In this document: one piece after another, positions 3,471-53,898 of the stretch
Position numbering within the stretch: the stretch's first letter is position 1
Layout of the letters: the number at the start of each line of letters is the position of its first letter
NCBI GenBank assembly: GCA_035084275.1
Contig: CM068742.1
Location: 310,001 to 374,000, forward strand
From: Hydrolagus colliei
Lineage: Eukaryota
Direction: 5' to 3'
Length of the DNA stretch: 64,000 nucleotides
Translations under genes and position numbers: made by a program
The notes under the pieces: model-generated
The model's input: the letters and a program-made list of their open reading frames with translations, nothing else
What the model was told of the DNA's origin: nothing
Databases searched by the model: none

Positions 3471-4848
3471 GTAAAGATAGTTACTGGCTCAGAAAAGCTA
3501 GCCACATATTATAATGAGGCCCTGTGGGATCTCTTTCTCTTCTTTGTTTTTTTTATTTCACAAAGTGGCAATTGTGTAAACAGCGAGAAGTTCCAATTAA
3601 AATTTCCAGTGGGTATCAGTCTGCAGATTTCCTTCAGAACACTACACTATTATCATTGCTTAATTTTATAACATTGTCCCCTCCCTTATATGGAAATACT
3701 GTATGTTGCCTTTCTCAAGGTGTTTCCATACATGTGGATATAACGTTAAAGCTTATCGTAAGTGTTGACTATAATATATCCTTGAGGCTTGCGCAGCCTG
3801 TGTATGTAATGTCGACTTTCATTATCTTCACGATCAGTGTTTTGGCTAATTATGTTTTAATTGTTTTGTTTGCTGGCTTCATGGGACTCCCCCGGCTTAA
3901 AGGTCATCCACAGCTGCAGACTTTAAACACTTATGAACTCCGTGCTGCTCGACTCAAATAAGTTCATCTCGGTTCTTTAGATTTCTGGAGGGTCAGCCTG
4001 ACGCATATGAAAAGCCTATCACCGTCATTAAAATTACCCAGATCATGTTCCACATATACTTCACATGGAACTTCCGGTGCTTATGTCTTTTGGGTACTTT
4101 TCACCACCAGGCGGTTTAATTGAATCTCTAGTTTTCTCGGTGTTCTGGGTGTGATGCCTTTTGCTGGCGGGCCTGCGTTCTGTAACTTTGCCATGTTAGG
4201 AACATAACTTTTTTGCAACGAATGCCACAAAAAAAGTCAGAACTGTGATACCACTCCAGCCAGAATGTATTGAAGAGAATTGTTGCTCTGCCTGACACAA
4301 GAAATGTACCACATTAGAAGTCGCATTTCTTAACAATGCACCAGCAATGCTTGTTTTCAAAAACTTGGCAGAGGAGTTCATTTGTTAGTAAATTTATTTT
4401 ATTTTCGAAAAGTACTGGGACCTTCTCCTTCTCCTCCTCCTTTCAAACAATAGGTGAGGCTGTTGGTAGACCCGATAAATTAACGACGAGCCATGATTTA
4501 AAATTGCAAATGTAAGAATGTAAGTCGTGTTTTGATTTTATTATTTTTATGTATAAAATCAACATTCGTAGGAATCTGACATCAAACAAAAATGATACTA
4601 AAAATGAAACTAGTAACTAGCCTGGATAAGAGGACCCAGATAACTAGATACAGTAACTCGGCTCAGGTTTGCAGCCAACCCAATTATTTTTCATCATTAC
4701 TCCTTACTTAATTTTTCAGGATTATTATAATTTAATTCTGCCTGCAGGTAGAATTAAGTATTTTTCTTAACTTGTGTCTCCCTAGAAAAACACTGGCAAA
4801 ATGTATGAATTCTGGAGGGGGGAGCTTAGACAGCAATAAAATGGCTTT

Positions 4849-4882
4849 CTGTGTGTGTATGCTTGTGTGTGTGTGTGTGTGT
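4849..4882. repeat. (TG)n microsatellite, interrupted
   Basis: Read directly from the sequence. Confidence 0.85.
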
Positions 4883-5436
4883 TTATATTTTCAGCATGAT
4901 AATCTTGGCTGGAAAGTCATATTTACCAATAAAATCTATAGTGAATACCCAAATTGTAGCTACTCGTACTCTGTCCCATTCGTACTTCCTAATGGGAAAC
5001 TATTTTTCTTAAGCGGTATTTTAAAAATGGTGTGAAGATGTGATTACGTCAAATGAGAGATATCTGCTCTGTTCATTTCTCCCCTGTTCACAGTGCACAA
5101 AGTAGAAAGTGTACTCTTCTCCGGTTAATGTTCATTATTTTTGTACATTTCCGGGGCCACGGGAGGGGAGGGGTTCGGGGGGGGGGGGGAATGTAGGTTT
5201 GTGCACAGAAGTGAATGGGACCTAATTTCCCTTGTCAATCAGTAAGATGAACAGCGACCTTTCGATATGTGCCTGAAGTGATCTCCACTTCCCTGGTGTA
5301 AGTAAGAGTTGCCTCAACAAGCATCCAAATGCCTCCTTATTTACAGAATGTTCTCCTTGTAGCCCTTCCAATAAAACCGAGTGTAAAAACTAACAGTGGA
5401 TATAAAGTAAGGCAGATTTTACCTTGTGCTTTGCAG

Positions 5437-5579
5437 ATGTCTGGCGGTCTTACGGTATCAATGACAATCCAAGGTGGGCCCTGAACGGTGAGGCTCACAG
5501 CTCGTCACTGACGGCCAAAGGTTTCCGCAGCGTCAGGCCAAACCTTTCATTTCCCGAAAGGAAAACTCCCCCGCAGCAG
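5437..5579 (+). CDS. SORBS2: SORBS2 exon DVWRSYG...[22 protein letters not shown]
   Basis: ctttgcag|AT...CAG|gtaaat; phase 1-0; matches human WRSY...[18 protein letters not shown]. Confidence 0.92.
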
Positions 5580-8500
5580 GTAAATGCGTTATTGGTGTGT
5601 TGCTCCCCACACACATTTCTGTGTAGCACCTTCATCAGGTTGTTTTCCAAATGAACGCTTACAATTTCCGTCAGGCAGGGGATGGGGATCGGCCTGGGTG
5701 GGTGGGTGGGGGGTGGGGGAAGGTGACATGCCATGTAGAGTATGTGAACTGATTACAAGAACTGATGTGGTTTAATGGGATCAAACATGAGCCTCATTTA
5801 AACCTAGGATGCATCTCACACTAGAAGCATCTGTTTAAGCTTCTGCTGGAAGGGACCAAACAAAGCAAATCTTTCCTTGACGCAGGTTTAAGCCATGATG
5901 GCAGTGTACTGACTCTAAAACGACTGCATTGTTTTCAGGTTGCCTTTTATCTTGGTAAATAGAAGCACAAGAAGTAGGGAGATATTCAGCCCATCAAGTC
6001 TGTTCCGCCAGTTTATTAGACAATAACACATATTTTTAATCCCTACAGTTGTACATTATGCCTGAGGTTTTGGATGATTATCATTATGACCAATTAACAA
6101 TTGTTCTTTTTATTTCTAACATTGATTTAACACCCTACAGAACTACCTCCGAGCACACAACATACCAGTTATTTATCAAACTGCAATGCACATACCTGCC
6201 ATAAAGCGGATTCTGTTGGTCACTCTTCCACCCAGTGTGGCTCCTAATACAGGAAATTGATTCAGTTCAACAATTTAATTACAATAAAAGCTGTTCAGTA
6301 GAATTATAAAATTGAGTCCAGTCTGTAAGTATACATTGGAGTTTCAATTATTTATTATAATGGACAGTTACTATATTGTGTAATTGAAACTGGCTTAACC
6401 TAATACTTTGTCGGACTGTGTTTTTTGCGTTGTTGACAAGTCGCACAGTTAAGATGGGTTCTCCCGAGATGGATGTGAGAAAGTGAGATATAAAATGTCC
6501 CCAAGGGCACATTCAAGATGTACTGGGATACAAATTTATTACGAAACTCAATTTATAAAGAACAACAGTACTTTGGCACTCTGCAACAGACTGCCTTTCA
6601 TTCGTATCAGTCGTGAGGAATGCTGCCCTGCTTGCACTGTAATAAAATTCAAATAATTCATGCTATGTCTGTGACTTAAACCTACTTTTCTAATTATGGC
6701 AAAAGAAAGTCTGGCCTCCCAGCGTCCCCATAAGGATCTAAATTTACTGTGGGTGTAATAAGTCAACAAAGCTTTTGACTGACTTTAGTTAGTCACTCAT
6801 TGTTTCAGACAATCTCTCTCACTCTCACGCTTTTTAGGGAAGGTGACTCAAAGCAGCAACAAAACTAGATTTGGTGAAAATGGAATCTCCCTTAAAAGAA
6901 ATCCCACACTGGAAGCCTGAATCCTGCTGTGGATTATTTCAGTGAATATTTTTTCCTTCCCATTCAGTGAATTCATTGAGAGTTATTCACGATGATCAAT
7001 CCATTCCCACGTTATCATTGATATTTTGTCACTAAACCTAAATTTTGTTTTGCTTCTTGTGAAAAACCATTCACAGCAATCAAAGCTAAAACCAATTGGA
7101 TTTATAAGGCACACTTCATGTGGGTTCTCATCTCGGAACAAAGCTTAGATGCTGGTACGCCTGCAGATCAAGAGGCTCGTCATTATTTGTTGGTGTCCAC
7201 AACATCCACAGTTTATATTTTGAGGCCAATATTGGAAAATGCAAACACAGCCACATGTAACTTTTACCAAGCCAATACGCCTGCAGGTTATGTGTAATTT
7301 GATGTGCTTTAGAGGAAAGTTCATTTTAATTTTAAAAAATTGCGTTCAGCGGTTCTTGTGACAAGTAATGGATGCGCGTGTCAAAAAGCACATCTGATAC
7401 GGTGTTCGGAGTACCAAGAATTTGGACTAATGGGAGCTCTGCTGGTGCAAGCTTGGAACAATATATTAGACTGACAACTCTATTATTGAACAACTTATCG
7501 TCTGCTTAAGAACCACAATAAATTTATTACGTTGCTCTCTACCTGACAGCAATAAATTTATTGAGAATGTATAATATGTTCCTGGACGTTTCAAAGCAAT
7601 GTTAAGCATCAGAACCTTTACCATTTAACTTTTCAAACATGTTGTCATTTTTCAGACAATTCCCCCAAACCCCCCCCCCCCCCCCCCCCACCACCCTTTC
7701 TGACACTGACCTGCAGAATTATGGAACCGAGTTTCTGATTGCATCAGACCTTGTATCGCACAAGGAATGAAGTGGCTCGAAATATTTTTTTTTCAAATGA
7801 TTTGGCCTCTGAAAATCACTTACACCACTACCATGTAGTATTGTTTAGATTGGGGTGAAGGAATTTTTGGAAGGATTTGATTTCCATGGTTCTCTTATGA
7901 ATGCATCTGGGTTGTCCTGCACTGAGCAATGTCACTGTCAATGTGCTTCACAGGTATTGAATAAATCAACCGTTTAAATTCTGTCAGCATGTTTGGGTGC
8001 ATAGTGTTTACAGCATTACATTACAGTTGTGAATATGTAGATATGATTGTAATTATTATGTACAGCAGGATTTTGCTTTTCATAGTGGAACAGACTCAAT
8101 GGGGTGAATCACCTCTCACTGTTTAGGATGTTTTATGGCCTATGGAGTACTGTACGATAAGAGAAATGTGTTGGCAGTTTTCTCATAAAATAACATACAC
8201 ACTGTTAAGAAACCAAATGCTCTGTTCGCATTGCTTTGTATAGATAAGCATAATATGAATCATGGCTGTACAAGTGGGTAATGTTCTCTTCTAATTGTAA
8301 TTCAGGTTTGTCATCTATTTCCTCTTCGGGTGAGGTTCAAATTGGCTAGTGCTCCCCACCACCCACGAGGACAATGTTGGGTAGAGCTAAAATAACTCAC
8401 CGTTTTAGCCTTAAGTCCATTGCCATAAAACAACAAATAAGATCGATATAATTTGGGCCTATTAAAATTTGGCAATTTAAGAATTTTTAAACGGAGTCTT

Positions 8501-30920: not shown

Positions 30921-31076
30921 ATCATGTTCATGTGTCAAACATTCACTTCAAATGCAAAGATTTAAGTCACCCAAGCCGATGGTCATTTTTTTTGAATGAA
31001 GACGCTTCACAAATTCTGAAACTGGGGGCCACAAGTGCGGTGTAAAGGGCATCAGTATAAAAAAGTTTCCTTTCAG

Positions 31077-31191
31077 GAATGACTGGGATCCTCCTGACAG
31101 AAAAGTTGATACTCGGAGATATCGTGCTGAACCAAGAAGCATATTTGAGTACGAGCCGGGAAAGTCGTCCATTCTGGAGCAAGAGCGGCCG
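31077..31191 (+). CDS. SORBS2: SORBS2 exon [38 protein letters not shown]
   Basis: cctttcag|G...CCG|gtagga; phase 2-0; highly conserved family motif. Confidence 0.96.
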
Positions 31192-34100
31192 GTAGGAACT
31201 TTCTATTCAAAGCAATTTTTCCACAGATATAACATGAATAAATAGAATTGTTTTTGCCAATATCTCCTGGCGGACACACGAGTGAGCACCTGCCTCTCTG
31301 TCAAATTGTGGGTTTCAATGCCGGGCGAACTGTTTTGCTAGTCTGGTTGCCACTGTTGGCAGCAAATTTTCATATACTTTCGACCTTGAGTCTTAAGTTT
31401 TCTCAGCCAAGCTGTTGACAATGAGCAAAACGCACCCTTTTTTTAAAAAAAGAAAAAGTAAACCCCCCTCATGGCTTTGTGAGGTGTGTCCTATTTTTGT
31501 CTGATCACAAAGACCATTGATTCTGCTTATGATCCAAGTGAAACCAGGCAACTAAACTAGGCTTCATGGTAGTAAATAAATCCTATGAAGAACCAAAGTG
31601 CAAATTCACGTACAAATATATTGGCATCTCTGGCCTTAAGTAATGCAGTAAATTTAAAAACAAAAGAAATACACAAGAAGATTCCGACTTTACTTTAAAC
31701 AAAATGAGAATGAAAGCATGGAAAAATCATGGATTAGAGTTCTGATTTCTGATCACAGAGCATGTATACCAGGGTAGAATCAGACCCACTCATTACTATT
31801 GTTATTATTTATGATGTCCGTCATTGTTGATTAGCTCACTGATTTTCACTGACGAGACTCTTTGCAGGAAGAATGTCAATGTGACTTGTTTGCTTAAGAG
31901 ATGTAGGCTCCTATGACTCAAGCCAATTGAGTATTAACGTCAGCGATTTTCTTAACTAAACATCAAGATTGCCAATTTGGAGAAACTTCTCTTGGTGATA
32001 ACTAGAACGATTCCGTCATTAAGCAATCCCATTTGATATTGCACGAGGACAAGAGAAAATTGGGTAAGAAAATGGAGTGAATTGAATATCTCAAATTGTT
32101 ATTTACTTGATTTGTATGCGTACCAGGTTTTTGGGTGGTGTTTTCTGAATACATGTTCATATTTAATGACTCCCAGATGAAATGTCAATATCTTACACTC
32201 GTTTCCTATCAGCAGTTGTGAACTGGTGCTATCTTTTTGTCGAGTGGCCAATTTAAAATGTGAAGTGCATCCGACAACAGGAGTTGTCTGCTTGATTAAG
32301 ACATTTGAAAGCTTTGAAAACGTCTGTTTTCGTTGTATCAGCATCAGAAAAAAAAGTTATTTAGAGGGAGGTTATAAGAAGTGGCATGGAGACTGAATTG
32401 AACCCAGGCAAGAAAAAATTTACATAATGAAGAATATTGAAGGGTTTGGGTCAATTAATTTGTGTGTGTCAATCCACTTGACAAGGACCTTCCCCAGAAT
32501 AATACCCAGCCACAGCCTAAAACTGGTTCTAACCACCAACCTGAAACTATGAGGGTTTCAGCAATGAGAGACGAAGGGAGAATCATTTATACTTGAGGAA
32601 GCAGCAAATCACATAATCCTGAAAACTCATATTCTTCCTTTAGAAGAATATGAGTTCATAAATGGCATTGAGAAAGTGAACCTAGAACGTTTGCAAGTCT
32701 CGAGACACCAAACAAGGTTTGCGGTTACAAAGAGCAATTTCTAGAAAGGTGCAAGAATATTTTTTCAAATCGAGAGAGTAATCAACTGGAACTGATTTAC
32801 CAGGAAGGGCAACTGAAGCCAGGGCACTGGATCATTTTACAAAAAGCTTGATCTTGCAATAGGACAATAGAATTGGGTACTTTGGAAGGATAGGATTAAA
32901 GCTGTAATTAGCAACTGTAACGTGTTTGAAATGTGGAAATGCAGTGGGGTTTAGGAGCTACGAGCCGATAGCAGACCCCGGGGATTGGAAGGGAGTTCTA
33001 TTAACATTAGTTCTAACAATAAGAAACCTTCATTCCATACTCAACCTCTTACTGTTCTCAAAGTCTAGTGCTTCAGCGGCACCGCTTTATAAAGACAAGA
33101 GGTTCAGTGAGCCACAGTATGTGGCTAACAAAGGAAAAATGTCTCAGAAAAGCAAGAAAATGAAGACAGCAGGGAGTAAGGTGTTCTCAGCCCATCGTGC
33201 TCGAGAAGTTGGTCTCAAACACAGAGAAGAGGAGGAGGATCGGGAGTGGGTTGTAAGTGATGCACACACAGAGGCCTAGTTAATAAGATGGCCTATTGTT
33301 CCAAGACCCACTTTATTTGGGTTTAGATTGCATATTATTGTTACCGTTATAAAATGTTCACGTGAAGTGGGATTGACCAGTAGAAACTACTGCCCCAACA
33401 GCTATTTAAAAGCATCTATAAACAAAGCTTTACTTCACTAGGTTAATCAGTTTATTATTGAGATGAGTCCTGGAGCAATATGCCTACTGCACTTTTTTCC
33501 CCCACTCTGACCTTCTTATTTTGATTTGTAAGATTAAGCATAAAGGTGTCATTCAGTATTTGTGACTTGGAACAAATTTTTACCTTTTATAACCATTTGA
33601 TTTTTTTTCCAATAAATCTCTTTATTGGAAACATCTCTTGAAAACAAGAGAACATTCTCTTGTTTTCAAGAGAATGTTCTCTTGAAAACATTTGTGATTG
33701 CATAGGACTGTACTTTTCTCTATCTCAAAATAAAAGTTCAATTTTATCTTAAAATTAATATCCCTGGCCTGTTTGGGGATTCAAATCTACCAGTGGTTTC
33801 ATGGTCCAAAGTATTGAACAAGATTAATAACTGTACTATCTTTGAACTATTAAACCACATGTGAACCTGAAGTGCTGTTCAAGATTGAGCGTAGTCTTTG
33901 CAGATGGGAACTTCAGTATTGATCCAGTGTTAAGTTGTCCAGTCTCTCCTGCTCTCTGGGTGTATGTGTCTACGTAACCATAATTGTGTATATTAACCAA
34001 TCTGTACATCGAAAGAGCATCTTTTTGAGTGAGTTAAAACAAAGGGTGTTTGATGGGCAGGAGTTGCATTATCGCAGCACTCATTGAATTACGGAGAGAA

Positions 34101-37597: not shown

Positions 37598-38081
37598 CTT
37601 CTGGGAATTTTTATACTTCACAGTGAGCAATTTATTTGGATTCATTTTGCAAATCCCGTTTAAAAGAACCCATCAGTAAGATCAGCGAGTGGATTGCTAC
37701 AGGTGCTGGCAGAATTTTAGTCAACTTCTACCATACAATACAAAGGTACAGTTGCTTGAACGATTTGCTGCTTGAATTACTTTATGGCTGGGAGGATCAC
37801 AGGGTCTAGTCAAATGATTAAAACTGCTTTGTTGGTTTCTGCAGAGGTCATTCATTTCTAAAGAGGTGTTAATTAAAGGGCAACATAAATGTAGATTATC
37901 GACTGAAAATACATCAACAACCCAAATCATCTGTCAAGATCAATGTTTTTTGGCTAGCTGGGTATCTGACACACTCAAACTTATTACCATGCTTTTTTTT
38001 GAGGGATTAGGATCAGGCGTGTCGAGTAAGGAAACCTGCTCAAGCCCCGCTTGGATTCAAACCCAGGTCTCTTGCTTGCAA

Positions 38082-38297
38082 AACGCAAAATGCTACAGAT
38101 GCTGGGAATCTGAAACAAAAACAGAAGTTCCTGGGGAAACTCAGCAAGTCAGGCAGCATCCATGGAGAAAGGAAAAGGAGTCAACGTTTCGGGGCTGCAA
38201 CTCTTCGTCAGAACTGGTTGTAGACCCGAAACGTTGACTCCCTTTTCTCCATGGATGCTGCCTGACCTGCTGAGTTTCCCCAAGCAACTTCTGTTTT
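38082..38297. mobile_element. Penelope-like (pLTR) inverted-repeat element with 14-bp TSD
   Basis: About 75-bp inverted arms (38117-38194 and 38223-38297); direct repeat TCTCTTGCTTGCAA at 38068-38081 and 38298-38311; hammerhead core motif inside. Confidence 0.75.
38177..38215 (-). ncRNA. Minimal type I hammerhead ribozyme-like motif
   Basis: Minus strand AGUU-CUGACGA-A-GAGUUGCAGCCCC-GAAAC-GUU-GACU: core boxes, imperfect stem II, palindromic ACGU stem III, stem I AGUU/GACU. Confidence 0.65.
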
Positions 38298-39299
38298 TCT
38301 CTTGCTTGCAAGGTGAGTGTTCTAACCACTGAGTTGGACTTCTCTTCAGAGGAACACATCTCAGTTACGTAATCCTGGAATTCAGGATAATTATTGTTTA
38401 AATCAGATGTAATTATTTACACACATACAGGTAGCCTGCCATAGATAGTATATTTTGGGAAGTTTGCAAAATTTACTGGGTTGTGATTATTTAGTCTTTG
38501 AAAGAAATGCATCATTGGGGACCTTTAGTTGTACGTAAGATTCTAATTGAGATTGAGAAAATAAACTCCAAACACTACATTCAGTTATTGCTGAGGCAGC
38601 AGAACAAGAGGTTTGAAGGTTGTAAAGGACAATTATGGAAAAATATTTACTCGTTGGTTGAGGTCGGGGAACTGGATTCAGTGAAGAAGTGGCTGGGTGC
38701 TATGCTGGAAGACTGGTGAGCTCTGGAACAGTGAGTTCCTCTAAACTTCATCTTAACTTCTCCTTTTTCAGCATAATTCCTCCATACTAGGGTTTGATAA
38801 TCACGGAGTCAGTTTGAAGCGGGATATTATGACACTGACCAATGAAAAACCCACTTTTTCGATGTGAAATTAAACTACAGTTGTGTACACAAGAGTGGAG
38901 GAGATGCGGAGTAGGCTTGAGCAGAAATGAAAGTAGAACATTTATTACTAGTGTAGATGTAAACATGTTGCTGCCTTATATTGAGTGATGGAGATAATTG
39001 GAAGGCTGTTCAACCATAAATGGATGTGACAACAGCATCTGCTGAAGACGAACTTCAACAGTCTTCCCAAAGGGTGATCATAAAACAGTGGATTTTATTC
39101 TGCTTTAATTGTGAGCAAACCAAAACTATTTCCTCAGTATTTATTTGCGTCAGTTACGAAAATAAATTATACAGAACACCATAACATCACTATGAATATA
39201 AGAGGATTTAGAAATTCTTAATCACTGAAACATCTCAAAAGTGCTTCAGAGCAATTAACTGTCAAGGATAGTGATTTTTTTTGTTGACAAGTTGATCTT

Positions 39300-43079: not shown

Positions 43080-43395
43080 TAAAACTTTATTTTTTAAAAA
43101 AAAAACACAGGTCTAGATAGGGAATTACAGGTACACTTGGATTACAGGTAACCAATGAAACAGATTGGTGGTTAGTTATACAATAAAACCCTTTCATTTC
43201 AGTTTAATACAGAATTAAGTGCATTTCCTTCTGTGTAAATGCTTGTGGACAGCGGCATTAACTTCTGTGATCAACTATAATGTAGAGGATTTATTGAATA
43301 ACTAGCCACCAATCTGTTTTATTATAAAACCTGTAATTCAAATGTATCTGTAATCCCCTCTCTGGGCCTCCTTTTTTCAAAAAGTTAATGTTTTA
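43080..43395. repeat. Foldback / palindromic MITE-like element with about 140-bp imperfect arms
   Basis: GGGAATTACAGGTACACTTGGATTACAGGT..AAACAGATTGGTGGTTAGTTATACAATAAA pairs with TTTATTGAATAACTAGCCACCAATCTGTTT..ACCTGTAATTCAAATGTATCTGTAATCCCC. Confidence 0.8.
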
Positions 43396-44433: not shown

Positions 44434-45883
44434 ACAACAACAACAAATTACATTTATAAAGCGCCTTTCACGTCGGGAGGACGTCCCAAGGCGCTGAACA
44501 GGAGGCGTGTGACCCGAGCTGGGAGGGGAGTGTTTGGGAAGGGGTGAAACACGAAGGGGAGGTAAAAGAGTTCGGGGTGGAACAAAAGGCACGATCGAAG
44601 AGGAAAGTCTTCAAACCGGCCTTGAAAGAGGAAAGGGAAGAAACGAGACGGAGGGATTGAGGGATGGCATTCCATAAGGTGGGAGCGGAGAAACTGAAGG
44701 CCCGGCCTCCGATGGTGGGGCGGTTCGGGCGGGGGGCTTGGAGCAGGCCAAGTCCTGTTGAACGGAGGGTCCGGGTGGGCGTATAGGGGGAGAGTAGATC
44801 GGTTAGGTAGGATGGGGCAAGGCCGTGCAAGGCCTTGAAGGTGAGGACGAGGATCTTGAACTCGATCCTCTGGAGGATGGGGAGCCAGTGGAGACGGGCG
44901 AGGGTGGGGGTTATGTGGTCGCGGAGGCGGGTGCGGGATAGTACACGGGCTGCAGAGGTTTGGATGGCCTGCATCCTGTGAATGGAGGAACTGGGGAGGC
45001 CGACGAGGAGAGAGTTTCCGTAATCCAGCCGTGAGGTGATGTACTCGTGCACGAGTGTTTCGGCAGCGCGGGGGGTAAGATAGTTGCGGAGCCTGGCAAT
45101 GTTGCGCAGGTGGAAGTAAGCGGTGCCGGTCAAGGCTCGGATGTGGGGGAGGAAGGAGAGTTTTTGGTTGAACATGATGCCGAGGTTCCTGATTGGCTTT
45201 GTGAGGTGGAGAGTGCAGCCTTGGATGTTGAGGCTGGCAGCGCCCGATGTGCGGAGGCGCTGGCTTGAGCCAATCAGGAGGGCCTCGGTCTTGCTCATGT
45301 TCAATTGCAGGAAGTTGTCCCTCGTCCAGGACTCGATGTCGGACAGACATGCTGTCAGAACATCGATCATCTGGGGGTTGAGGGATGAGGCAGAAAGGTA
45401 CAACTGGCTGTCATCCGCATACATGTGGAAATTTACCCCATGTTTGCAGGTGACGTCGCCCAGAGGGAGCGTGTAAAGGGTGAAAAGGAGGGGGCCGAGG
45501 ACAGAGCCCTGAGGGACACCGTGAGAAACTGTGCGGGGGTTTGAAGAAAAACCATTGGAAGAAACAAAGTGTAAACGGTGGGTCAGGTAGGAATGGAACC
45601 AGTCAAGGACTGTGCCTTGAAGGTTGAGGTGGGAGGAAAGACGTTGAAGGAGGATGGTGTGATCGACTGTGTCGAACGCAGCAGACAGGTCAAGGAGGAC
45701 GAGGAGGCAGAGGGAGCCCTGGTCACAGGCGGTTAGGATGTCATTTGTGACCTTGACCAGGGCAGTTTCTGTGCTGTGGATAGGGCGGAAACCTGATTGG
45801 AGGGGTTCAAAAAGTGAGTGAGTTGAAAGGAAAGAGCGGAGCTGGGAGGCAACCACTCTTTCAAGGACCTTGGATAAAAACAA
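44434..45883 (-). mobile_element. 5'-truncated L2-clade LINE with uninterrupted RT and C-terminal ORF2 portion
   Basis: ORF 44468-45883 has RT motifs QSGFRPIHSTETAL, LLDLSAAFDTVDH, GVPQGSVLGPLLF and YADD, plus L2-type LHWLP..RIEFKIL; the 3' tail ends in (TTG)n. Confidence 0.95.
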
Positions 45884-45992
45884 TTGTAGTGACTGTTTTT
45901 AGATAAACTATGATTATGTTGTTTACTTCACTGTAGACCAGATTGCAAGTCTCTACCAAACTGATTCTAATTTTATACATTCTTTATATAGA

Positions 45993-46306
45993 TGGAACTT
46001 CTGTAGGTCAGTGGTTAGAGCACTTGCCTTACAAGCGTGAGACCTGTGTTCAAATCCAGGGCGATACCTTGGGCAAGTTTCCTTACTCCACACGCCTAAT
46101 AATAATCAGTCAAAAAAACCCACAATAATAAAATTGGTCATTTAATTCCACGATTGTTTGTGGGACACTGCTGTGTGTAATTGGCTGCTGCATTTCGCCC
46201 ACAAATATACAATCAATTCACTTTACAATATATTCTGTGAAGCGCTTTGAGACATCGATAAGATGTGAAAAGCGCTATATCATATGCAAGGATTATTATT
46301 ATTATT
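45993..46306 (+). mobile_element. tRNA-derived SINE, full length
   Basis: Colinear with 43880-44184. Confidence 0.9.
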
Positions 46307-49827: not shown

Positions 49828-50103
49828 ATTTGATCACGCGCTTTTCACGTCGTCTAGACGTCTCAAAGCGCTTTGTAGAATAAAGTGAATTGACTGTATA
49901 TTTGTGGGCGAAACACAGCAACCAATTTCACATGACATTGTAGCACAAACAGTCGTGGATTGAAGTGACTGATTTTTTTTGAAGGATTATTATCGGGTGT
50001 GTGAAGTAAGGAAACTTGCCCACGGTTTCACCCTGCCTGGAATTGAACCCAGGTCTCTTGCTTACAAGGCGAGTACTCTAACCACTGAGCTACAGGACTC
50101 CAC
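49828..50103 (-). mobile_element. tRNA-derived SINE, near full length
   Basis: Reverse complement of the same family, including the tRNA head. Confidence 0.85.
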
Positions 50104-51300: not shown

Positions 51301-51571
51301 CTGATTCAGAAGCAATTTGAGGCAGGTTTGCACCCTAGTGGTGAAAAGCAAATCATGCAACTTTTATATTGGTGCAATCTGATGCTTTTGAAATTCTAGA
51401 TTTTATTGTGATCTTATGAAAACAACAGGAGCTGGTCCTTCTACTTCACTTGCAGTCGATGGACAAAGCGAAAACTGCCTGTCGTTCTCACTCACTCTCA
51501 ATCATTCACTCTCCAGAGCACAAAAGCAAGGGAAAGAAAATCATGCAAACAGTCTCGTTTTATTCTGTTAG

Positions 51572-51750
51572 TGCCAGGAATACATCAGCAAGTGACTACA
51601 GGAAGAGACGGAAGTCTGAGCCAGCAGTTGGTCACCAGAGAGCACAGAGCGACCAAGCTGTACAGAAAGGTGGTGACCCACAAAGCTTCAGCAACGTAAG
51701 CAGGAAGTCATTGACCAGTTCCTCTCCATCATCGCCATCCAGAGTCAAAG
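51572..51750 (+). CDS. SORBS2: SORBS2 exon ARNTSASDYRKRRKSEPAVG...SSSPSSPSRVK
   Basis: ctgttag|T...AAAG|gtagga; phase 2-1; a second in-frame acceptor would start the exon at 51578. Confidence 0.94.
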
Positions 51751-53898
51751 GTAGGAATTAGGAAATACAGCCGCGAACGCAAGACATTCGGTTAACCGAA
51801 TGAAATTGGTAAAAAGGAAATGTGTTCAAATGCACCTTTAAGAGTTAATAAATATTTCTAATTGTAAAGAGAAATTGCTTTTGCAGCTCGGTGACTCTCA
51901 GCAGGCCTCTCAGTGAATGAATGAGCGAATGGAGATTGTTTGTTTCTTTTTGTCAAATAGCTAATGAGATGAATGGCCAGCTTTACCTTTCTCCTATTTG
52001 AAACAGTCAAATTGCCTACCAAGGATGCTCATGAGTGTACTCTGGCTGCTAGCCTCTTTAGGTTAGCGATTTCTCCTCAAATGCCTACAAAAGGCAAATT
52101 TGCAGCAACGACCATGGTTGCAATTAGGGTATTTGCATATGCACAAAGAAGGAAATCAAGCTTGATAGTTTGTAGAATTATTATTATTATAATTAAAAGT
52201 TGGTAGAATATTTCACAATGATCTTAAGAGAGCAGAACAAATGAAACAAGTGGATTAGAAATTCTGGTAAACTTCTGGTTTGAGGGCATATCTGACTGGA
52301 AAATATTGATTTTAGCTCGTGTGTTCAATTTTATTCACAAGCAATAAAGGGACCTGCAGTATTTGAGATGTATATGTGGTTTCTGCTTTGTCAGATTAAT
52401 AATTATTGCTAACAATTAGAAAAATTCTTCTAGTCACAGTTCATCTCGATAAGTAAATAGTGGATAGCTCAAATAAATTAAGTTAGAGGCAGGAATATTC
52501 CCATTTATAACATTCACACTGTTTTCTTATTTACTGTAGTTATTACAATCAAATGGTTTATTAAACTAGGGATGCAACATTTTTGGTAATTATGGTTTAA
52601 AACAAATGATCAAAATGTGATAACAAAGAATTAAGAGTCAGCATTTTGTGTTGCTTTAGTTTGAGAAATGTTGTTAAATTATAAATCTATTTGACAAAGT
52701 GGAGGTTTCTTATGGAGGACCATTTCCACTATGTTATCCATGCAGCATTGTTGAATTTTTCAGAACGTTGAAACAATCTTGTAAGTTTTGGGGACCACAA
52801 TTTTTCCACTAAAAGGTTTGCGTAGTGTTCTTAATTTTCCTCCTGGGATGCAAGGTTTATAGCTGGTGTTGATCACATTCTTCAGTTCTTTTGCATTAAG
52901 TGTACAAAGGTGTGGATGCATGCCTGCTCTCTGGTTACCTTTATATGACTGTAGACTGCTCCACTTAAACGGTTGTTTTAAATGTCACTTGGAGAATATT
53001 TCTGTTTCCCTCTCGTCCCATTTTCTGTATCTTCTTCCATCGCGCACTGCATCAAACTGTTGAGAGCGCAGTTCCTCTGCCAAGTGGTGCTGTTTTATCA
53101 AGCCAAGGGGCATTGAAAGGAAACGGAGGGATCTCTCTCTCTCTATTCTCTTTGTTTCCTCTTCTCCTGTAAGAAAACCTCCACTCTGCAGCCCTGGCCC
53201 ATGTGGGAATTAACATGAGTTTGCACTTGTTACCCTTGTAGCTGTTTGCACCCGTATTTGTCTGTCATCTTCATACACTTGTCAAAAAGATGGCGTTTTG
53301 TTTTCCTGGGGATTTAATATTTAATAATACGACTGATTCGTGGAGGACAGGAAGTCATTGTAAAGGCTTGTGTTTTATGTATTAGTGTTACAAAATTTTC
53401 TGCTTGACCACTTTTAGCTTTGCTTAAATATGTCTATTTTTACAAACTATTGATGCTTTGGGACTGGGAGTATCTCAGTACTAACTGCTTTAACACTTTT
53501 GTGCATATAGTCGCTAAACCCCGTGAACATTGCATTACTATATAATGTCTTTGCCCTGCGTTGAAATGCCAGTAATAACACAAAATGATTAATTTCCGCT
53601 AGATCATATCAGAAAAAAGTACATTCTTATAAACAAATGCCAGCAGCTGAGTATCCTGCTGTTTGAATATAACAGAGATCTAATCCTATGAGGAACTGAA
53701 AGAAATTCAGGTGAAAAGGTTTCATCATTTTCACCACACCGAAAAGGTATTATAAGTGAGGCTTAGACAAGTGATAGAATAATCTGAGAGTTTTGTGAGT
53801 TGGAGCTCTTACGTTTGTGGTTAAAACACTTTAAGGGCAATGTAATCACGTAAGTGAGTTGCATTAAAATACAGGCCAACCCCATTATAATACAATTA

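Follow-up and report, generated by a model that had tools for sequence, protein, structure and literature searches.

RESULTS

An inverted insert within a SINE of the SORBS2 intron

The 64-kb window, by which we mean the whole stretch of DNA that was analysed, contains SORBS2 exons at 31075-31209 and 51567-51758 (+), which are 95% identical to Callorhinchus milii SORBS2, match the Sorb family and flank an insert lodged in a SINE; these matches point to a fish of holocephalan type. The intron bounds derive from one C. milii isoform, and alternative exons inside the intron are possible. The host SINE is a tRNA-headed repeat of about 300 bp with at least seven further copies in the window. Numbering the element from position 0, the first base of hammerhead stem I, the features of the locus are as follows:

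31210-51566 (+), SORBS2 intron containing the insert; the exons on either side match C. milii SORBS2 residues 666-710 and 720-782
37981-38333 (−), host SINE, tRNA head plus the first part of the body, 3'-truncated and split by the insert
38068-38081, left target-site duplication (TSD), 14 bp; its last 3 bases are also the tail end of the element, which leaves this boundary ambiguous
38298-38311, right TSD, 14 bp
38082-38217 (−), long arm, spanning −2 to about 136 of the element, from the 5' stop shared across the family to the distal (tail) end
38082-38115 (−), tail, element positions about 100-136, present in the long arm only
38216-38298 (+), short arm, spanning 13 to 98 of the element and finishing at the proximal end, without tail or CUGANGA box
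38216-38217, central head-to-head junction, a 2-nt overlap common to both arms
38179-38215 (−), minimal type I hammerhead motif: stem I of 4 bp, CUGACGA at 38211-38205, an extra A, stem II at 38203-38191 with two broken pairs, GAAA at 38190-38187, an ACGU palindrome and a predicted cut after GUU (38183/38182)

The initial annotation of this DNA had described a 216-bp insert within an exact 14-bp duplication, and both were confirmed: TCTCTTGCTTGCAA stands at 38068-38081 and again at 38298-38311, on either side of 38082-38297, and in the SINE tRNA head it reaches from the anticodon loop across the 3' strand of the stem. The inverted arms are equally real, but the length of about 75 bp first assigned to them was slightly short, since 82 bp are paired in the plus-strand hairpin 38117-38298. 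This makes the insert a long hairpin, with a fold z of −17.6 against 200 shuffles. The reading of the minus strand from 38215 to 38179 as AGUU-CUGACGA-A-GAGUUGCAGCCCC-GAAAC-GUU-GACU also holds, as does the observation that the plus arm, which begins within stem II, has no CUGANGA box. With a long arm from −2 to 136 and a short arm from 13 to 98, the insert is typical of its two-armed family, and the locus is an ordinary dead insertion. In a search for an empty allele, public contigs broke at the repeats of the locus, and no listed piece spans the insert site; an 82-nt piece (organism B) crosses the left junction with just 27 letters of flank, and another, from run X7, departs from the window sequence within the right TSD.

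A hammerhead motif carried by the insert

The sequence of this copy and of its family supports the proposed minimal type I hammerhead with a palindromic ACGU stem III, both displaying the CUGANGA and GAAA boxes, an NUH site, the extra base after A9 and the palindromic 15.2-16.2. The ribozyme had been called complete, which is true of the single-stranded core bases but not of stem II, where two of the four Watson-Crick pairs (A13:C23 and U15:C21) are broken. Folding predicted no stem II in the insert copy, the family form folding at −4.2 kcal/mol, and a probability of about 0 for all hammerhead pairs of this copy in its hairpin context, because the motif lies inside the long hairpin. When the hammerhead model check suggested earlier was carried out, no hammerhead family match was obtained in Rfam; the Rfam miRNA matches to the insert stayed below the gathering score and were discarded as hairpin artefacts. 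As initially annotated, the full motif is antisense to SORBS2 (gene on the plus strand, motif on the minus strand). This orientation, the broken stem II and the predicted locking within the hairpin make self-cleavage of the insert copy unlikely.

Across the family, stem changes are one-sided, from U.G to C-G at pairs 3:33 and 16:20, and no two-sided compensatory change was seen in the hammerhead stems of the copies. Genomic hammerhead copies decay at CpG, core and stem II being kept in 19 of 52 unselected arms. The best explanation for the motif is that it represents inherited cargo of a Penelope-like element (PLE).

A long-plus-short rule governs the two arms

Arm layout was counted over 217 distinct loci, after dropping L038 together with ten duplicate loci and L166, which holds no element; L061-L063, L124-L133 and L243-L262 were used separately, outside the counts. 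Element 3' ends were bimodal, falling at about 93-109 and about 130-142. Both 3' ends could be placed in 92 two-armed loci, and 89 of these combined one long with one short arm, two were intermediate and one was apparently long+long; this last locus turned out to be an adjacent separate insertion. The rule was equally evident in the 89 hammerhead-selected loci, a set chosen without regard to ends, where 35 of 37 two-armed copies were long+short and the one-armed copies comprised 19 long and 24 short (p about 2e-11). TSDs of 13-15 bp accompanied 54 of the 89 long+short inserts.

The two arms appeared to originate mostly from one source, since minority variants were common to both arms of one insert 123 times, as compared with 38 (maximum 56) for shuffled partners. 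Discordant arms were found in three to six inserts per diagnostic column, and these few pairs may reflect two RNAs or later conversion. At L046 and a few other loci the arms differ at a two-base subfamily marker, a hint of two RNA templates or later conversion.

In L1 twin priming, the second nick primes internally on the RNA, leaving an inverted 5' part inside the TSD. The present family shares the inverted part within the TSD, but its priming sites are fixed and its arms usually duplicate the same sequence. A tail-only inverted arm without overlap was found in 8 of the 89 inserts, and two more have kb-long partners; such insertions, up to 2 kb long in the series L243 (C33), L255 (C16), L041, L048, L049, L077, L210 and L216, have textbook twin-priming geometry.

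The long-plus-short rule is best explained by priming from both target nicks at two fixed RNA sites. The layout could instead arise by fold-back, in which one cDNA or RNA end primes its own copying into the inverted arm. The 2-nt junction overlap suits this self-priming as well as the annealing of two cDNAs, the short arm of the 38082-38298 insert is nested in the long one, arms have subfamily variants in common, and self-priming on an antisense template has been proposed for Adineta Penelope elements (PMC3846280). Against it, in 31 of 89 inserts it is the tail-less arm that reaches further 5', by more than 5 nt, an outcome that together with the eight tail-only arms excludes a single folded-back cDNA. 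Fold-back likewise gives no cause for the second arm to stop at about 100, a position that is also the end of 24 of the 43 one-armed copies. We thus regard it as unlikely, and retain priming from both nicks.

The insert is the end of an abundant Penelope-like element

The suggested origin from a Penelope-like element is supported by the ORFs of the parent element and by loci selected through the endonuclease. Searching the 1.0-Gb genome of origin with the minus arm gave 2,281 candidates, and the 40 copies scored were 93-95% identical. Exact searches returned 563 matches for a 32-mer over the hammerhead, 1,543 for a tail 23-mer and 2,653 for a tail 15-mer (control 12), and 1,011 motifs in the genome present an intact-looking core with both stems. 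Locus L061 contains broken ORF pieces with a reverse transcriptase (RT; YIDD, DKG), a CX4CxxC linker (CQRRRCNTC) and a CCHH GIY-YIG endonuclease (EN), followed by the 3' UTR and the hammerhead unit. Pfam comparison of the parent ORFs yielded GIY-YIG (E 0.0027 and 0.00046) and RVT_1 (E 1.9e-5), all below curated cut-offs since the parent copies are broken. Ninety-three longer homologues of RT/GIY-YIG type were recovered, the best, from a shark, with 64% identity. The hammerhead unit terminates 28 of 30 endonuclease-selected loci, and none of 30 long loci was a full-length copy with an intact 5' end (pLTR-ORF-pLTR). The insert represents the last ~140 nt (hammerhead and tail) of an abundant Penelope-like element of RT/GIY-YIG type, and is not a separate retrozyme.

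The linker motif and the host group suggest that the parent likely belongs to the Neptune clade, Nematis sharing the linker. Neptune elements are described with a CX2-5CxxC linker between RT and EN and a C-terminal CCHH GIY-YIG (PMC8557442). L061 has the same RT-linker-EN order, with its CQRRRCNTC linker and CCHH-type nuclease; our family differs from the Neptune elements of that account in yielding no intact ORF and in showing no microsatellite targeting, and its placement rests on the linker and the host group. Sister PLE subfamilies, whose stem II loops differ, occur at L174, L175, L178, L127 and L157; they have the same ends and use the same SINE hotspot.

A common 5' stop just before the hammerhead

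Of 70 arms reaching +5, 55 stop at −4 to +5, just before the hammerhead, and about 10 of 83 tail-selected arms extend beyond −65. A TATA-like word lies ~30 nt upstream of position 0, which we take to resemble the initiator consensus; on these two features, an RNA start would be the likeliest cause of the pile-up at −4 to +5.

The stop also resembles a splice acceptor. Element positions −130 to +1 and 90-107 (L061 760-720 and 640-615, minus strand) form strong splice-acceptor-like stretches with a pyrimidine tract and CAG. A likeness to splice acceptors has been noted for Drosophila Penelope in PMC4209133. The two stretches may bear on PLE intron retention and on the exonisation of sense-oriented intronic copies.

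The stereotyped 5' stop and the excess of short over ORF-bearing copies are features that a self-propagating hairpin element or retrozyme would also show, the hammerhead producing unit-length or circular RNA, and a recent preprint derives animal retrozymes from PLE pLTRs (bioRxiv 10.64898/2026.07.22.740005). Nevertheless, 5' ends avoid the predicted ribozyme cut (32/33), only 6 of 121 arms beginning at 28-37; centres and arm lengths differ from copy to copy in every case; a tandem array of the unit occurs at none of 217 loci; the core has mutated at CpG positions as neutral DNA does (G9>A in 11/52, G25>A in 13/52); and the stubs lack the TATA-like upstream stretch. From the non-autonomous or retrozyme-like unit first envisaged we keep the stereotyped length, but centre and 5' ends are particular to each copy, ORF copies have the same end and arms do not begin at the cut site, which renders such a unit improbable. 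Derivation of the insert from the end of an ORF-bearing PLE is accordingly maintained.

Target sites and a SINE hotspot

The target-site counts cover loci whose TSDs near the ends measure 9 bp or more (121) or 11-18 bp (107), leaving aside the junction-selected loci L164-L182 and the insert locus. Host-type SINEs, which make up 9.3% of flank bases, contained 18 of the 121 sites, and seven fell within a 13-nt window of the SINE 3' body (0.6% of bases; p 7e-6, the window being chosen post hoc). Genome-wide, this 3'-body site gave 65 + 58 pattern matches, of which about 57 and 53 join a single 14-15-bp segment, in both orientations, and a control anchor 14 nt upstream returned no SINE junction among eight matches. 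The hotspot accounts for at least 4% of the 2,653 tails, and takes about 4-6% of insertions. Its TSDs measure 14-16 bp; an example SINE copy lies at 46005-46305 (−) of the window, and the loci are L168-L182.

Composite SINE-PLE amplification was considered as the cause of the hotspot and rejected, 14 of 15 loci having different 5' ends, 11 having TSDs, three belonging to a sister subfamily and both orientations being represented. As 14 hotspot loci differ in 5' ends and subfamily, 11 of them with a TSD, they must be separate insertions. A resemblance of targets to the tail motif TACAG was also discarded, TACAG not being the top k-mer.

A symmetric weight matrix from the 99 other sites showed A at −14, C at −12 and A/G at −10 from the centre; held-out sites scored 4.0 bits and random DNA −2.0, a separation that is somewhat optimistic, as the register was fitted. 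By this matrix the hotspot came 2nd-6th among about 240-300 positions in five of six SINE copies, and the insert site fell at the 97th percentile of random positions (4.3 bits, the mean at other sites being 4.0). A loose mirror-symmetric nuclease preference, and not tRNA-head targeting, explains the insert site.

The suggested targeting of the anticodon arm is not supported by these counts. That the element seeks SINE tRNA heads, for instance via Pol III factors or the anticodon stem-loop, is hardly credible: the insert and the tail of L165 do meet the anticodon arm in the same register, and two more head junctions exist in opposite orientation, but the head received none of 121 mapped sites (1.6 expected), the 4 + 4 genome-wide head-pattern matches include only four real-looking junctions (the insert locus and three others), the resulting two or so per orientation equal the arithmetic prediction from anchor density, and the 3' body, whose anchor is just 2.4 times commoner than the head anchor, holds about 110 junctions. 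There may be a weak preference for the anticodon-arm site, L165 being its second case; the landing of the insert in a SINE tRNA head was likely chance.

The heads of these SINEs can also resemble tRNA genes, as in the ARAGORN call of tRNA-Thr(TGT) at 50029-50098 (−), which is the head of a SINE copy. The anticodon is TAC or TGC in other copies, and the call therefore does not denote a true tRNA gene.

DISCUSSION

Starting from the observed TSD, arm layout, parent element, long-plus-short rule and loose symmetric target preference, we consider it highly probable that the insert is a dead two-armed stub of the terminal ~140 nt of a PLE, made by double nicking and two-site priming, with the hammerhead as inherited cargo and the SINE head hit through a loose preference. 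The two target strands would be nicked by the element nuclease at points 14 bp from each other, and the element RNA would be reverse-transcribed from either nick: priming at a distal site (~136) would yield the tail arm, and priming at a proximal site (~100) the other. Synthesis of the long arm would then continue as far as a fixed 5' end of the RNA immediately ahead of the hammerhead, that of the short arm would stop at +13, and the two cDNA ends could be joined via the 2-nt overlap. The SINE head would have been struck because SINEs are common and the site suits the loose preference of the nuclease.

Some observations call for caution about double priming. The arms of 60-odd two-armed copies overlap, so that strand displacement or two RNAs would be required, and the extra bases, without overlap, at 21 of 32 scorable central junctions count against a simple form of the process, as do the discordant arm pairs. 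In vitro work on an Anolis PLE bears on the proposal from both sides. In that work, the element cuts and extends both strands from two internal RT start sites bounding the tail, and its enzyme is predicted to be a dimer; the same study reports no strand difference in RT start site, which counts against our proposal (PMC11167929). On balance, we lean towards a general version in which a dimeric enzyme would cut a mirror-symmetric target, leaving a stagger of 14-15 nt, and would prime one RNA at two fixed sites, generating the inverted-plus-tail layout. Priming near the 5' end of the transcript would account for the abundant ~140-nt hammerhead stubs, and the symmetric preference for a two-orientation hotspot, at one base-precise position of the commonest SINE in the host, that takes about 4-6% of insertions.

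The two-armed layout and the ribozyme class are already published. An inverted 5'-truncated copy and a one-sided tail of 30-40 bp figure among PLE features in PMC8557442 and PMC3846280, and the first of these states the origin of the inverted/tail structure as unresolved. Compared with the EN+ PLE insertions of these two papers, including Pen2a_Av (PMC3846280), our insert has the same head-to-head arms within one TSD, one-sided tail, 5' truncation and hammerhead in the terminal repeat. It differs from them in being almost devoid of coding sequence and in belonging to a family for which a strict long-plus-short rule has been counted. Family TSDs measure 13-15 bp, in contrast to 8-10 bp in the Adineta examples, and the symmetric target preference contrasts with the microsatellite bias of such insertions.

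The metazoan PLE minimal hammerheads of PMC4209133 share with our family a 4-bp stem I, an extra nucleotide between A9 and G10.1, the G10.1-C11.1 pair, a palindromic 15.2-16.2 that offers no stem III as a monomer, and thousands of solo copies with some opposite-strand pairs. Our family is distinguished by a stem II of 4-5 bp, as against 6-8 there, and by a GUU triplet, stem II being broken in the insert. Poseidon PAc of Anolis, although of another clade, resembles the family in its two fixed RT starts bounding the tail, the cutting and extension of both strands and its AT-rich targets; the text consulted does not trace the inverted layout to a single priming event at each site (PMC11167929). 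Non-LTR retrozymes are likewise non-coding, with a type I hammerhead and PLE pLTR ancestry, but are defined as tandem repeats with a hammerhead per unit, whereas the insert consists of one inverted pair flanked by a TSD (bioRxiv 10.64898/2026.07.22.740005).

Our literature search retrieved no paper on two-site double priming for PLEs and none on a PLE hotspot in a SINE; its scope lay outside Repbase, Dfam, Arkhipova 2006, older subscription papers and supplements, which may name the family. Given the open question of PLE integration, the family statistics weigh more than the locus. The long-plus-short rule, the tail-only arms, the fixed 5' stop and the base-precise target provide exact substrates and predictions for a purified-protein test, and the SINE 3'-body hotspot could serve as a defined DNA substrate for the GIY-YIG nuclease of a retroelement. 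For the host gene, the insert would form a ~82-bp hairpin in SORBS2 pre-mRNA, a putative substrate for editing or dicing.

Other features were observed in the intron and at L061. An open frame rich in charged residues at 33060-33279 (+), unmatched by the C. milii isoform used, is a possible alternative exon of SORBS2. A MITE-like element of about 316 bp with inverted terminal halves of ~70% lies at 43080-43395 of the window, and long RT-like open frames occur at 44468-45898 (−) of the window and at 3787-6615 (−) of L061, the latter matching RVT_1; we take both to be L2/CR1-type LINEs.
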